Position numbers and translations under genes: made by a program. Below the pieces are notes generated by a model, which saw only the letters and a program-made list of their open reading frames with translations, was not told the origin of the DNA and made no database searches. A stretch of DNA of 64,000 nt, from NCBI GenBank assembly GCA_045837725.1, contig JBEWZL010000036.1, positions 1 through 64,000 on the forward strand, written 5' to 3'. The DNA is from Vermamoeba vermiformis (lineage: Eukaryota). Of this stretch, positions 11,125 through 38,051 are shown piece by piece; the first letter of the stretch is position 1, and each line of letters starts with the position of its first letter.

Positions 11125-12184
11125 TCGTTATAACTTGATTGTCGAAAAAGATTTTTGCGAGCAAGTCATAAATTGCTATCACTATAATTAATATTAATAA
11201 GTAGATTATAAGAATGTCGAATATAATAAACAATAAAATCCTACCTTTTTCGTTATTGCGGTGCGGAATCAGGACGCACGTAATGCTGATTAATGCTTAT
11301 ATATAGCTATTTTGTTTATGATCGATTCCTTTGTACTTTTGTGCTTGTTGCACGTAAAAAACATAATCGTTATTTTAAAAGCACCGAGTGCATCAAGTAT
11401 AACTGAATATCACTAAAAATGCAGCAACTCTACGTATAGTTATTTTAAACAAGCTAGTTTGTAAGTATCGGTGGACTCGCGAACTCCATTTAACCCGGAT
11501 TCGACATCTAACGTGGAGTCAACGTTAAAGATATTCTTATTTAATTTACAATTATATTTACGGAGACTACTATATAATAACAATCGGAAATAAATTAATT
11601 AATTAATGACGGTTTTTCAGACGCGACGAAACAATGAAAAGCCGACCATTCATTAAAGTGGTGCACAAATAAAAATCGCAACGTTGCGCTCGAGCGCTAA
11701 GTGGCCGACAGGTAAAATTAACGCGGTTTTAAAAATTTATACAAATCAGAAGTAATTCCGCCGCTCAATTCTCGTCCTCTGATTGGTCAAACTTGGAGGT
11801 TAAACTGAACGCCTAAATTTTGGTTTCGCCCCTGAAATTTGCGACTCACACCCAAATTTTTTGTTTCTTTTTTTTCTTTGTCAAACCAATCAAAATCCTG
11901 TCATGAAGACCACGATTAAACGCGCATAATATGAGCTACAAGCACTTCGCTTCGACACGCACGACGTGGTTTCGGTTGTTCTAGTAACCAGGCAGGAACT
12001 CAGCGTAGCTGTAAGTTTTTCCGCAGAATTATTAAAAGATATTTTGATGAATATAAATCTAAATATTCAAATTATTGGCCTTAAATACGCATAAAAAATT
12101 ATTCTAACGGTACATTATACTGAAATATTTTTTTAGGTTGGTTGGATCAACGATCTTGCCGTTTCTGCCGCCTGTCTCAAGTTG

Positions 12185-12533
12185 GTATGTTTTCTAACAA
12201 CATACTTGAAATCCCTTCATACTCGGTTTCGCTTCGGTCGCGAATCTACTTGTCTTTGGTGCGAGTGAGTTGATCTGCCGTTTTGGTGGATTCAACCTAC
12301 GTCACACTAGTTGCCACATTGGTGAGCTGATCCCTCACCGATCAAACCATTTTCTCTGGATCAGCAGAGAGAGGTACCGCGGCCTCCCAATGGTTTGGTC
12401 CCATGTGTGCAATTGAGTTGGAGTAAGTCTTCAGCTGTGTGACGCGTTCATGAGCACTGGGGCGTTTTCCCTGCCCCCTAAGGCAAGCATTCCGTGTATT
12501 GTAGGCTAATTTTCAATTTTCCGACACTTAAAG
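12185..12533 (+). ncRNA. Unassigned structured RNA inside an unusually long intron of an apparently non-coding spliced transcript
   Basis: Many nested stems with G-U pairs on the + strand (see findings). Flanked by a GTATGT donor at 12185 and CTAAT..AAAG acceptor at 12533. No ORF. Confidence 0.6.
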
Positions 12534-12877
12534 TCGCGAGTAGTCTACTGAGGATTTCATTTTTAAGGCACAAACGAAGCACAGCTCAAGATCGCGTAAA
12601 AGGTAACCTCTGTTTAACTGATCTGACTCAATTCTGATGCCCTTCTTCCTAAAAGGACGCTATGGACACGAGCGATACTGCGAGCAAATAAATAAAATCA
12701 TGACGAGCTGTCTTTTGCGTGTGCTTGATTTTTTTGTGAGCGAAAATTAAGAGAAACTTGAAAATTTTGAGCGTTTCACAAAAAATTTATCAAAAAAAGC
12801 GTTCACTTTAACCTCCAACTATGAAAGTAAACCAAACGGACAATCATTATTCCTAACTATTACATTACACCAACACA

Positions 12878-14137
12878 ATGGCTGACTTCTCATATCAGCT
12901 CCTCTCAAAAGAAGATCGAAACGAGTTCGTTGGACCAGATCCCGATGGTAAAGCGCACTACAACAATCCAATGAAGCGAATCATCGCCAGATTCACGCTG
13001 CCGGAAGCATCCGACGCTATTGGTCGCAAAAAAGAATTTATCGAAAAGATCCACAAACTGCTTTTGATTTGTGCCGCAGTTGCAATCATTACATCCGTGT
13101 TCTACCTCAACTACCAATCATTTCCCGAGATCAGCAGCAGCATCAACTCTGACTATTACCAGCAGAAGGGCGAGGAGAGCAAATTATTTCCGCTGCCCGT
13201 GTTTGGACTCTGTTTCTCACGCAGCGGCTTTCGAGGCTGGCATCCAGTAGTGTGGCGCATGTCACAGCGAGAGAACTTTCACGCCGAAGTCACTGCCTCG
13301 TGCGTTCATTGGAGTCCTACCGGTCAGAGAAATTTACTCCGCAATTCGACCCAGCTCCAAACTCCCGTTGAGAGCTACTCGTGCGACACGGATGACATGA
13401 CTGCGAGGTGCAAATCTGTCGTGACCTTCAATCGTGACTTGCAGTGCGTCTCGTTTGGCGATGAGCAATGTCCGATCTGGCAAGCTCTCAGAAGACTCGA
13501 GATTGTCGAGATCCAGCTGCTCGGTTTCTGGAGCCGCATCAACCAATTCCCTGCCACCACTCCCGGGGGTTGGTACGAAAGCTCCGAGGCATTTTTCAAC
13601 AATCCGAGCACGTACCACACGCAAGTCCTGCTCGGCGGCATCACACAAGCAATCCTTGAATTTCACCGCGAAGAGCACAAATTCCCCGACCCCGACAGCT
13701 CCAGCCCATTCGCGTACTTGACCAAAGTGTCTTATCCGACGAGCACTACGACCCTAAACATCATGGACAATCATCTCCAATGCGCGCCAAACACGACTTT
13801 GCTGCGACTGAATCGCATGTGTTATCCAGCAGTCACGACGAACAACATATCCGTAATGGCTATTCCTCTGCCCTTCAGCGTGTTAGAATTGCAACTCCGA
13901 TTAGCCACGACTAAAATTCCGACGACAAAAGAAGAAAATGGCTGGTACTTCATCTATCGCTCGCTCAAGGACATTGGTGGCTTCTCGACGACACTAGCCA
14001 AGATATTGTTCGTGTTCATATCGGTTGTGCTGACGAGAATTATATTTTCGAATCGCAATGCATTTTTCGATGAAGAGATTAGGCTAGCAGTAACGCACTT
14101 CATGGCCGAGCTGAAACATCAGCGACAAGCAAAGTGA
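12878..14137 (+). CDS. Intronless two-TM protein with a Cys-containing extracellular loop; DEG/ENaC/PAC-like trimeric channel topology
   Basis: 419 aa. TM1 LLLICAAVAIITSVFYLNY, post-TM1 PEISSSI..FPLPVFGLC, TM2 SLKDIGGFSTTLAKILFVFISVVL. Confidence 0.5.
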   Translation: MADFSYQLLSKEDRNEFVGPDPDGKAHYNNPMKRIIARFTLPEASDAIGRKKEFIEKIHKLLLICAAVAIITSVFYLNYQSFPEISSSINSDYYQQKGEESKLFPLPVFGLCFSRSGFRGWHPVVWRMSQRENFHAEVTASCVHWSPTGQRNLLRNSTQLQTPVESYSCDTDDMTARCKSVVTFNRDLQCVSFGDEQCPIWQALRRLEIVEIQLLGFWSRINQFPATTPGGWYESSEAFFNNPSTYHTQVLLGGITQAILEFHREEHKFPDPDSSSPFAYLTKVSYPTSTTTLNIMDNHLQCAPNTTLLRLNRMCYPAVTTNNISVMAIPLPFSVLELQLRLATTKIPTTKEENGWYFIYRSLKDIGGFSTTLAKILFVFISVVLTRIIFSNRNAFFDEEIRLAVTHFMAELKHQRQAK

Positions 14138-35051: not shown

Positions 35052-35628
35052 GGCAGTAGTTAATAATATATGCAGGTGTGGTGTTGCGTTTTGGCTGTTT
35101 AGTTCAAATGCAGAATTCTCCGTTCCGATCGGTTTTAACCTTCTAGGCACGTGGTTCAGTCTAGAACCTTCCTTCCGTTATGAGAACCACCTACGATATG
35201 GAATAACAACCGGAATATTATAATATGATCTTAATCGGGATACAGTTCATCATGAGAGCGCTAGATTTGTCTGAACGGAAGCTCGGATATTTTAAAAACA
35301 ATTACTTCATAATTATTCACTAAAAAAGCTAGGAATAATTCAAGTAATTATTGGAAATAATCTCGATGCTAAAACCGATTTTATAATAAAGACCGTTCTG
35401 GATGTTGAAAGATCAAGAAACACGCAATGCACTTCGCTGTTAATCATACCTAGTTAGGTACAATATGATAGAGCTCTCAATATATATAAAATGTTGCTTG
35501 AGGTCCGCTGACAAGACTAGCACTGTTACCAGCCTTGAAATCAGAACTCAAACTCAGTAATTTTTTAGTTCGCCAAATCATCAACACCAGGCATAATACT
35601 AGCACTATATATATAGCACTCCTACACT

Positions 35629-38051
35629 ATGAGCACTGGTCTGCACATCAACAACATCCTCGGTGTAGGCACTGCCAGACACGTGCACTCGTTGTTGCAG
35701 TCACCGCACGATCTCGATACAGTGGGTGCGTGGTACTCCGTCCATATTAAATAGGACATTGAATATTAATATCAGCGCTATGCAGCTCGAATAAATCAAC
35801 TTAAATTCTGCGCTGCAAGACTTTAACTGCCGTTCAATTTCGATTTAAATTCAAATATTCAGCCAATTAAATTCTGCTGTACCCTGCACTAATACAGTCA
35901 TATTTAGATATGCCCATGGGACCTTGCGTGCTTCGTTGGTAAGATCTCAGATCACACAATTTCCTATTTTGGCAATGGTCACTGACTCCCTCTCATAGGC
36001 ATTTCAGTGAACAGCGACGCGTGTTCATGAAACAACTGCACGCAGATGGCATCACCAATCTCTTGCGCGCACCGCACCGCCAAGATGTGATCTGCACCAC
36101 CTCGTACGTCACGTGCCCTAATATAGACCTGCCTTATAACTGCAGCTAATCACGTGCTCAGGTACGGCGGTGAATTCAGATTTTGGCGCGCAGACGAGTA
36201 CACGCCGCTGACCCCCGCAGTGCACGTGTCAGTGGCCAATCACGTGACGCGCAGCACGCCCATCATGCACGCGAGTTGGAGCAGCGACGGACGCTACTTG
36301 GCGCTGAGTTCATTTCACCACGGCGTCGAGCCTGGCGCTGATTTGTTGCTCGAGCGGAATTATTCGTTCATCTCCGTGTACGAGCTCAGTCAGGGACTCG
36401 GTACGTGCTGCTGTTTGACACTTTTGACATCTGACACGTGACTGCAGATCAGCCCAAATTAGTCGCGCAACAGTGCGGAATATTTGATGGCCTGTGCGAG
36501 TGGCACGCGACTGACACGTGTCAAGTGCTGATCATCGCGGAGAACAGACCTGTCACTCAGTGGCACGAGCAGGTCACCACCAAAGACGATGAAATTCCGC
36601 TGCTGCACGTACTGCGCAGTGACACGTGGCAGCTGTCATCGACCAGGGCAGCAGCGCGACCCATATCGGGCATGATCTACGACAAGTCACGTGGTCAGGT
36701 GATTGTCGCGCACATTGACCGCACACTCTCCACGTGGACTGTCAGCGCGCAGCTCACCGTCAGTCACGTGCGCACGAGTGGCACACTGCCAGGCTCAGGA
36801 CGCATCTTGTGTCCCGCGGTGCTGTCAGACAGTCACGTGATTGTCGCGCCGAGTGAACAGGGCCACTATTATTCCGTGCCCATCGAGCACGTGACTGCAG
36901 CTGTCAACCCCGCCAAGACACATGTCACTCCGGGGCTCGTGTACACCTTGGTCCAGTCCATTGTTGACACGTGTCATTTGTGGATTTGCAATGATTCAGG
37001 CGTGCACCGCGCTAAATTTAGCATTACGCACAACGAGGGCGCACCGCAGCTAAAAATAGAACAGTTGCAATCCATCACGTGCTTTGAACTCGCCTGTTGT
37101 GGCCTGGACATCTGTCGCGCCACTGGCAATCACGTGGCCGTCGGAGATTTGACTGGTCGCGTGGTCGTGTGGGACATTTCCCAGCCCACGCCAAAAAAGG
37201 TAATCAACACCGAGGCCATGATCCGCTCGCTGACGTGGTGGCACGAGCACGACATTCAGTACGGCACGCTCAGCGGTGAAATCTACACGTGGTCTGTCAA
37301 CAGCGCACTCGCACCGAGTCTCGTGACAAGTGTGACAGGTGGTGTCACGTGTCTCGCGTGGGATCCGATCAGCCAATCAGTGCTCGCGGCTTCCACCACG
37401 GAAGGTCAGGTGTTCATTCTGTCACGCGCGCATGATGGCACGTGGCACCAGATCGGACTGATCGAAGCACGTGATCAGCAGCCCTACGTCAGCTCGCGCG
37501 AGATTTGGTCCGTGGCGTGGAGTCCTTGCGGAAATTTCTTGGCAACAGGCGGTGAAGATCGCATGACACACCTTCACCGAGTGCAGCGAGTGACAGGTGT
37601 CAAAGTAGAGCCCAAGCCAGAGCACGTGTTGCACGAGAAGAGTGCGGCAGTGACGTGTTTGGACTGGCAAATTGACAGCACGAACAGCGCGGTGTTGGCA
37701 GTGAGTTCAGACGACTGCACCGTGCACTGCTGGCAAGTGATTCATGAACGAGATCACGTGCCCGTCATTCGCGGAGTACTGCGCACCGACAGACGACAGC
37801 TGATGATCACGTACTGCGCCCTCGAACAGCGCGGCACTCGTCTGTTCTGCGGCACCATGGGTGGCTCGGTGTGGCACTGTCACGTGACTGATTGCGACAG
37901 CACGACAGCACACGTCAGACCGCACTTTGGCAGTGTGGAGGGACTGCGGGCCATGTCTTTGCCTGATTTGGGCATCACTCGTGTCGTCACGTGCGCCTCT
38001 GATCTCACTGTGCAGATCACTGATTATCCGATCGATCGAAGGAACTTGTAA
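35629..38051 (+). CDS. WD40-repeat protein
   Basis: WD repeats VAVGDLTGRVVVWD, VTCLAWD, IWSVAWSPCGNFLATGGED, VTCLDW..SSDDCTVHCW. Confidence 0.8.

Follow-up and report, generated by a model that had tools for sequence, protein, structure and literature searches.

A structured RNA of about 334 nucleotides accumulates from an intron of a small, apparently non-coding gene at a Vermamoeba vermiformis locus

We analysed a stretch of 64,000 nucleotides (nt) from Vermamoeba vermiformis (NCBI GenBank assembly GCA_045837725.1, contig JBEWZL010000036.1, positions 1 to 64,000 of the forward strand), which we refer to as the window. An earlier note on this DNA, made from its letters alone, had described an unassigned multi-junction RNA with a kissing loop in a long intron at 12185-12533. 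At this locus lies a small spliced gene, and an RNA from inside its second intron outlasts the host transcript and accumulates relative to the exons and the other introns. The gene model below is based on assembled contigs of two public RNA runs (X7 and X4) that we placed on positions 11821-12780.

11910-12010 (+): host exon 1; its start is the start of the X7 and X4 RNA contigs only; donor GT at 12011-12
12011-12136 (+): host intron 1, 126 nt, GT..AG; joints 12009/12136 (X4) and 12012/12143 (X7); depth 0
12137-12184 (+): host exon 2, from contig pieces and joints
12185-12567 (+): host intron 2, 383 nt, GT..AG, GUAUGU...UUUUUAAG; joint 12183/12567 in one contig each of X7 and X4
12185-12205 (+): 5′ splice-site hairpin GUAUGUU/AACAUAC, -3.9 kcal/mol, outside the 334-nt contig
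12205-12538 (presumably +): accumulating structured RNA of about 334 nt; its ends are the limits of an assembled contig
12545-52 (+): likely branch region of intron 2, CUACUGAG
12568-12602 (+): host exon 3, from RNA contigs
12603-12655 (+): host intron 3, 53 nt, GT..AG; joints 12596/12650 (X7) and 12598/12652 (X4)
12656-12742 (+): host exon 4, with AATAAA at 12687; contigs end at 12707 (X7) and 12742 (X4)

The three GT..AG joints of this four-exon transcript are found in contigs of both runs. The spliced X7 contig (234 nt, depth 5.6) covers 11910-12012, 12143-12183, 12567-12596 and 12650-12707, and the spliced X4 contig (271 nt, depth 2.1) follows the same kind of pattern. Intron limits were set after allowing for the joint shifts reported (the cut at intron 2 moves by +1, that at intron 3 by +6 in X7 and +4 in X4). 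By these limits the earlier note had placed intron 3 correctly, but had ended intron 2 at 12533, 34 nt short of the contig-based end, and intron 1 at 12138 rather than 12136. Its statement that the flanking exons give no sustained open reading frame (ORF) agrees with the 271-nt spliced transcript, which has stops in all three frames. The hairpin that it proposed to sequester the 5′ splice site does exist, but is weak, and intron 2 is spliced in both X7 and X4. The loop of this hairpin, UUCUAAC (12192-12198), lies only 7 nt after the donor and is the same as the branch-site-like heptamer of intron 1 (12102-12108).

Of 24 public runs listed, 20 contain the stretch 11850-12750 wholly or partly; they come from ten studies, and eight are on record as RNA. 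Four runs were compared with 11821-12780, two as contigs (X7 and X4) and two as raw RNA reads (X21 and X23); small shares of the stretch in the metatranscriptomes and metagenomes X8, X13 and X17-X20 were not used as evidence. In X7, a separate contig corresponds exactly to 12205-12538, at a word depth of 20.5 compared with 5.6 for the spliced exons. In the same run, depth falls to 0 throughout introns 1 and 3 and on both flanks, and the intron 2 signal is therefore not carry-over of genomic DNA. X4 contains two pieces of the intron, 12210-12402 (depth 3.5) and 12422-12572 (depth 2.3). The second of these runs unbroken from 12422 via 12538 to 12572, into exon 3, which argues against a repeat boundary at 12538.

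The X7 intron contig begins 20 nt past the 5′ splice site and stops 29 nt before the 3′ splice site, although these limits are approximate. An RNA with 20 nt missing from one end of its intron and 29 nt from the other is a trimmed product, and we accordingly rejected a full-length excised intron (FLEXI) or lariat. The same limits lie one base outside the terminal helix of the predicted fold (P1, below) and two bases past a small 3′ hairpin, a match for exonuclease trimming to a protected core. We infer the + strand from the orientation of the host gene and from the asymmetry of the fold between strands.

The intron RNA is also less variable than the gene that surrounds it. It shows no difference from the window in 334 nt in X7 and none in 344 nt in X4; the two runs are filed under other organism labels, yet in both the intron RNA is letter-identical to the window. 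The host exons in X7, whose organism is not the window's strain, have about 7 differences in 234 nt (five other letters and two one-base gaps), including T>G at 11982, a missing base at 11986 and a missing base in GTTGGTTGG at the start of exon 2. In X4 the exons have about 3 differences in 271 nt. The one-sided Fisher p for intron RNA versus exon differences is 0.0019 in X7, 0.085 in X4 and 0.00019 for both runs. Such a pattern, with an unchanging intron product amid variable exons, is the hallmark of a host that exists for its intron RNA. As in hosts of small nucleolar RNAs (snoRNAs), the intron product is both deeper than the exons and less variable, as far as contig data, a rough measure, can tell, and the locus is best explained by a small gene of the snoRNA-host type, non-coding and dedicated to this RNA.

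The predicted structure of the RNA has the following elements, all in the minimum free energy (MFE) fold; the last three lines give the nine stems that the earlier note had drawn.

12206-26/12492-516 (+): terminal helix P1, 17 base pairs (bp) with small internal loops, pair probabilities 0.60-0.94; joins both ends of the RNA
12228-44, 12269-96 and 12459-77 (+): side hairpins, probabilities 0.81-0.99; in 12269-96, GAUC is paired to GA(U)UC
12249-56/12480-87 (+): helix P2, which closes the core with P3; probabilities 0.81-0.99
12258-68/12448-58 (+): helix P3, which closes the core with P2; probabilities 0.81-0.99
12300-19 with 12403-15 and 12437-44 (+): long helix P4, with the hairpin 12416-36 inserted; probabilities 0.94-0.99
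12321-12339 (+): hairpin Hc, 6 bp, loop CUGAUCC; predicted first kissing partner
12340-12400 (+): helix P5, 12 bp, GAUCAAACCAUU/AAUGGUUUGGUC; carries hairpins Hd and He
12353-70 (+): hairpin Hd on P5, loop GAUCAG; predicted second kissing partner
12371-86 (+): hairpin He on P5, loop ACCGCG
12522-12536 (+): small 3′ hairpin CGAC-ACUUAAA-GUCG, within the contig and close to its 3′ limit
12300-07/12437-44, 12308-19/12403-15 and 12321-26/12334-39 (+): stems 1-3
12340-51/12389-400, 12353-58/12365-70 and 12371-75/12382-86 (+): stems 4-6
12416-23/12429-36, 12269-79/12285-96 and 12459-64/12472-77 (+): stems 7-9

All nine of these stems recur to within one bp, with mean pair probabilities of 0.88-0.99. 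The MFE fold adds to them the three outer helices P1, P2 and P3 and the hairpins 12228-44 and 12522-36.

This fold is far more stable than expected from nucleotide composition. On the + strand, 12185-12533 reaches -125.8 kcal/mol, outside the range of dinucleotide shuffles (mean -94.2, standard deviation 5.2; z -6.08; 0 of 100 as stable), whereas the - strand of the same stretch reaches -100 kcal/mol (z -1.97; 1 of 100 shuffles equally stable). For the accumulating RNA itself, 12205-12538 (+), the MFE is -123.9 kcal/mol compared with a shuffle mean of -94.9 (standard deviation 5.5), a value that none of 400 shuffles reaches. Its fold contains 117 bp, 12 of them G-U, and 234 of its 334 bases (about 70%) are paired. 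The gap in stability between the strands comes from the G-U pairs of the + strand fold, and a bias towards the + strand with G-U pairs is what selection at the RNA level on a + strand structure leads one to expect. As a genomic background, we folded 574 segments of 334 nt across the 64-kb window on both strands (1148 folds) with correction for G+C content, and the RNA ranked first of the 1148 for normalised stability (z -3.05). Intron 1 of the same gene is unstructured (fold z +0.51). The runner-up, 35299-35632 (-), has a z of only -2.73 against its own shuffles. We note that this second segment holds a UGAUGA and two CUGA within about 45 nt.

Two loops of the RNA are exact complements, as the earlier note had claimed: GCUGAUCC (12326-33) and GGAUCAGC (12358-65). 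Six of the eight complementary nt lie strictly inside hairpin loops, a number reached by 2 of 400 shuffles. Pairing of all eight requires closing pairs to open, and at this length 0 of 400 shuffles reach 8 and two reach 7. An isolated 8-bp duplex of the two loop segments is worth -12.7 kcal/mol. When the segments are instead forced into a nested helix, the fold drops to -113.3 from -123.9 kcal/mol, a cost of 10.6 kcal/mol; we therefore set aside a switch between two nested structures, and a tertiary contact is the better reading. Such a kissing contact between Hc and Hd, which exceeds chance in the shuffles, probably locks the core. The predicted helix lengths would fit it, in that Hc has 6 bp and the 12 bp of P5 less the 6 bp of the folded-back Hd would bring the two loops to the same height. 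Both loops are built around GAUC, which occurs four times in 97 nt of the RNA compared with 5.6 times per kb in the window. Separately, 12 nt of the intron RNA (12428-12439, TCTTCAGCTGTG) are 92% complementary to 12580-12591 in host exon 3, which may be chance.

The earlier note could match the RNA to no known family, and a scan of the 64 kb with Rfam 15 likewise gives no match at gathering level. At E<=10, the stretches 11500-13200 and 12195-12545 (351 nt) give unrelated weak matches only, two of them within the RNA on the - strand. No covariance model of RNase P, RNase MRP, signal recognition particle (SRP) RNA, 7SK or the U small nuclear RNAs (snRNAs) matches, and we rejected membership in these classes. 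Intron 2 contains no TGATGA, and CTGA occurs in it only at 12327, in a hairpin loop, and at 12548, outside the 334-nt RNA, which is therefore not a C/D snoRNA. Nor is it an H/ACA snoRNA or small Cajal body-specific RNA, since it forms one closed multi-junction domain; the hairpin-hinge-hairpin-ACA arrangement is absent, and the only 3′ ACA, at 12524, is part of the small 3′ hairpin and stands 12 nt before the contig stops. Five internal T4 runs within 12205-12538 argue against a polymerase III gene. Several resemblances to known RNAs that we noticed by eye were set aside as they have no model support: AAACCAU (similar to the m2 element of snR30), GAUCAGCAG (U6-like), GCCGUUUUGG (similar to stem-loop I of U2), and GAAAUCCC and GGCUAA (similar to conserved regions of MRP RNA). 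On the protein side, the stretch includes an open frame of 68 codons (12210-12413, +), for which a search of 1.84 billion proteins gives two matches, to multi-repeat ankyrin-like proteins with 13 of 28 residues identical per repeat. This frame has no Pfam family even at E<=10, and we read the likeness to ankyrin as chance.

The combination of a missing family match, accumulation in two runs of this intron and not of its neighbours, and invariance relative to the exons bears out the proposal that an RNA is housed in the long intron. Our preferred explanation, to which we assign a probability of roughly 55%, is that a processed, structure-protected non-coding RNA of about 334 nt, of a class that matches no known family, derives from intron 2 and that the host gene is itself non-coding and dedicated to it. 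The host transcript would be spliced, and intron 2 (383 nt) would be debranched and then trimmed by exonucleases, with trimming halted at the base of P1 (5′ limit near 12205) and at the small 3′ hairpin (3′ limit near 12538). The product would be a compact RNA with about 70% of its bases paired, folded as a stack of the long helices P1-P5 with seven side or terminal hairpins. It could then act in trans as a protein-binding scaffold, that is, as the RNA of a ribonucleoprotein (RNP). Since almost only hairpin loops are exposed in the predicted fold, a scaffold is the most likely role and probably the correct one, and a role as a long-antisense guide or as a template is unlikely.

Several points weigh against this explanation. 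The RNA data are assembled contigs, which carry no strand, true ends or true level, and word depth is a poor measure of expression. Some of the differences counted in the exons rest on contigs whose depth is 2-6, some adjoin joints, and with only the three X7 differences that are listed outright, the Fisher p becomes 0.07. The raw-read RNA runs X21 and X23 matched 0 and 1 reads, which is no test unless the organism is present in them. These two runs share a species label with the best DNA holder of the stretch, as does X24 (0.00 of words), and all three contain next to none of it, so the label may cover divergent strains. The margin by which the RNA ranks first in stability is small (z -3.05 compared with -2.94 for the runner-up). 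In a metagenome scan for the two kissing loops plus GATC, none of 96 loci proved related by blastn of 11900-12760; this pattern requires unchanged loops and therefore cannot say that relatives lack the RNA. A bracketing inverted repeat, described below, leaves room for an origin in a mobile element.

The alternative that survives best, though we consider it unlikely, is that the RNA is a structured segment of some element that is mobile or repeated, similar to a miniature inverted-repeat transposable element (MITE) or an introner, or a cassette bracketed by terminal inverted repeats. Its RNA would persist through its stable fold without having a function, and the higher depth would sum over several genomic copies. 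The following feature speaks for this idea.

11793-11812 (+) and 12799-12818 (-): 20-nt inverted repeat TTGGAGGTTAAA(C/G)TGAACGC, which brackets the host gene in a 1026-bp unit

The repeat is perfect apart from one degenerate position. The window contains two matches to it, a count reached in 0 of 100 shuffles. The copy on the right precedes the next gene's ATG by about 60 nt, and the pair may represent the ends of a mobile cassette or a regulatory element used on both sides. Intron 2, at 383 nt, is also much longer than its neighbours of 53 and 126 nt, long structured introner-like introns are known in fungi, and the contig limits inside the intron could in principle be branch points of an assembly graph. 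However, the X4 contig passes 12538 without a break, no target-site duplication is seen in the sequence beside the inverted repeats, and blastn finds no second copy in the 64-kb window, only the RNA itself and chance matches of 12-15 nt. Beyond the window, the 96 metagenome loci include no homologue, two patterns gave no match in contigs of prokaryote genomes, and the loop pattern had one match in viral contigs, of another length (44 rather than 40 nt), which was taken as chance and not aligned. One strand folds much better than the other and uses 12 G-U pairs, and the RNA shows no variation where the adjoining exons do. Thus, the locus shares with introner-like elements and MITEs an unusually long intron, an unusually stable fold and nearby inverted repeats, but differs from them in the lack of a second copy in the window, in the strand asymmetry of its fold and in a conserved unit that excludes the splice sites.

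We give somewhat less credit to the idea that the structure acts purely in cis. In this case, P1 would loop out about 310 nt and so restore a normal distance between splice site and branch site, the 5′ hairpin might tune splicing, and the RNA that accumulates would be left over as a by-product. Long introns shortened by their structure are known from yeast. Here, P1 (12206 to 12516) leaves about 21 + 51 nt between the splice sites, near the 53 nt of intron 3, and the 5′ splice site does lie inside a hairpin. However, such a zipper needs one helix, and not 117 pairs, a multi-junction fold and complementary loops; moreover, the host lacks an ORF that could be regulated, the hairpin at the splice site is weak, and the excised part exceeds the spliced product in abundance and the exons in conservation.

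It is very unlikely that the RNA is a highly divergent housekeeping RNA of an RNP, such as RNase P, RNase MRP, SRP or 7SK-like RNA, that has moved into an intron. A size of about 330 nt, a terminal helix that joins the ends and long-range pairing between loops all recall such RNAs, and four GAUC in 97 nt add to the resemblance, as does the pairing of GAUC with GA(U)UC, which is similar to the 5′ hairpin of 7SK. With 7SK the RNA further shares a length of about 330 nt, the bulged U in that pairing, 5′/3′ pairing and a 3′ hairpin, but 7SK is not known outside animals, and the present RNA has no Rfam match, derives from an intron, contains internal T4 runs and lacks a U-tail. RNAs derived from introns do not have the 5′ triphosphate and the 3′ U-tail needed by 7SK proteins. 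For RNase P there is a precedent in Drosophila, where the RNA is embedded in an intron of a polymerase II gene (PMC4287351); it too is a large structured RNA of the RNP type in such an intron, without polymerase III signals of its own. The RNA described here differs in that it matches neither the RNase P nor the MRP covariance model. More generally, the Rfam models for these families find nothing in the 351-nt stretch, even when hits up to E<=10 are admitted, and the single-stranded, conserved-region-like segments between helices are missing.

A telomerase RNA riding in an intron, as in Caenorhabditis, had been among the suggestions of the earlier note, and the results leave it with hardly any likelihood. 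Telomerase RNAs typically escape Rfam. The RNA also contains one exact direct repeat of two units, AAUUUUC x2 (12508-21), near the 3′ end and directly before the 3′ hairpin. This is its only periodic string, however, it is half buried in P1, and it would encode (GAAAATT)n, which is not a known telomere type. None of 13 known telomere repeat units occurs in the RNA as a full unit extended by 3 nt (its own AAUUUUC repeat served as a 14th test string), and pairing of about 70% of the bases leaves no free template. Nothing that bears on the question emerged from a search of the literature for fungal and amoebal telomerase RNAs. The Caenorhabditis RNA is 327 nt long, lies in an nmy-2 intron, has an enclosing stem that links the 5′ end to the 3′ region, the template UAAGCCUAAG and an H/ACA end (PMC12921731). 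By comparison, our RNA has neither a telomere-template string nor an H/ACA end, and its host is non-coding rather than a germline protein gene. Equally improbable is a small-RNA precursor whose long hairpins are diced, which near-perfect helices of 12-20 bp might suggest but a 334-nt contig at high depth, indicating that the full-length form accumulates, speaks against.

The explanation that we prefer, a processed RNA from a dedicated host, finds its parallels in several known systems. Stable snoRNAs encoded in introns of non-coding hosts are known from genes of the UHG/GAS5 type. Like these, the present host is spliced, has several introns and a poly(A) signal and lacks an ORF, possibly with a C/D snoRNA in a neighbouring intron; its stable intronic RNA outnumbers the host transcript, varies less than the exons and has a terminal helix that joins the ends. 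The difference is that the 334-nt RNA has neither C/D boxes nor a hairpin-hinge-hairpin-ACA layout, and that, with its multi-junction core, it greatly exceeds a guide snoRNA in size and in extent of folding. FLEXI RNAs and stable intronic sequence RNAs (sisRNAs) are also structured intron RNAs that persist after splicing, but the host of the 334-nt RNA appears to exist for it. By analogy, then, the RNA may be likened to an intron-encoded snoRNA in its biogenesis, and to insect RNase P RNA and nematode telomerase RNA as a large RNA of the RNP type that rides in an intron. It lacks the defining features of snoRNAs and of RNase P RNA and, for the 13 telomere repeat units considered, a telomerase template.

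A bolder proposal, which we regard as doubtful, is that this RNA founds a class of its own among the large RNP RNAs with tertiary structure, in a microbial eukaryote. Processing of an intron of its own non-coding host would be the only way in which it is made, and a loop-loop contact of 8 bp would hold it together. As such it could replace a housekeeping RNA that has not been found in this lineage, or be a ribozyme or regulatory scaffold without counterpart. Large RNAs with a complex fold and no known family are rare in eukaryotes, and those that are known (RNase P and MRP RNA, telomerase RNA, SRP RNA and 7SK) are all cores of important machines. Compared with most computational candidates, this one comes with evidence of excision and retention, a host gene that seems to exist only for the RNA, and invariance amid exon drift. 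If relatives keep the fold, it would define a new RNA family and add a further intron-riding RNP RNA to those of insect RNase P and nematode telomerase; should it prove a repeat, or an intron that is stable but inert, it would be a useful caution for scans that rest on folding energy alone.

Upstream of the host lies a gene for an ankyrin-DHHC palmitoyltransferase, and downstream an ORF of 419 codons that belongs to no known family and has homologues at 82-42% identity in public data, among them ones at 82, 58, 46, 46, 44 and 42%. Other genes in the window encode LRR-kinase, Kelch/PKD, SHAQKYF-type Myb domain and APC1 proteins, and introns in the window are short, with CTRAY-like branch sites. 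An ORF for proteasome subunit alpha-6 scores about 240 bits against a group of best-matching entries that includes mammalian alpha-6, the top one being 7qve, reportedly a plant proteasome, and 166 bits against the yeast-named ones. Gene content and introns together suggest a microbial eukaryote rather than an animal.

Upstream of the host gene, three motifs in which a C-rich run is followed by AAATTT (CGCCTAAATTTT, CCCCTGAAATTT and CACCCAAATTTT) lie at 11810-11860 (+), about 20 nt apart and 50-100 nt before the start of the host contigs. This motif, which has 7 matches in the window compared with 2.65 expected, could be a promoter element. One X4 contig extends 126 letters upstream of 11827, and the last 30 of these letters nearly match 11797-11826 of the window. 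X4 thus seems to carry a small indel upstream of 11827, and the host gene is reached, in this run, by transcripts that start or read through from further upstream.

Intron 1 of the host gene contains a candidate for a second intronic RNA.

12034-12133 (+): candidate C/D snoRNA in host intron 1, with UGAUGA at 12045-50 and CUGA at 12120-23, 75 nt apart

The + strand of intron 1 has no Rfam match and no coverage in the RNA contigs. The two boxes stand at snoRNA spacing and are flanked by a possible terminal stem of 10 A/U bp (12034-43/12124-33), and a C/D snoRNA at this position is plausible on the basis of these motifs.

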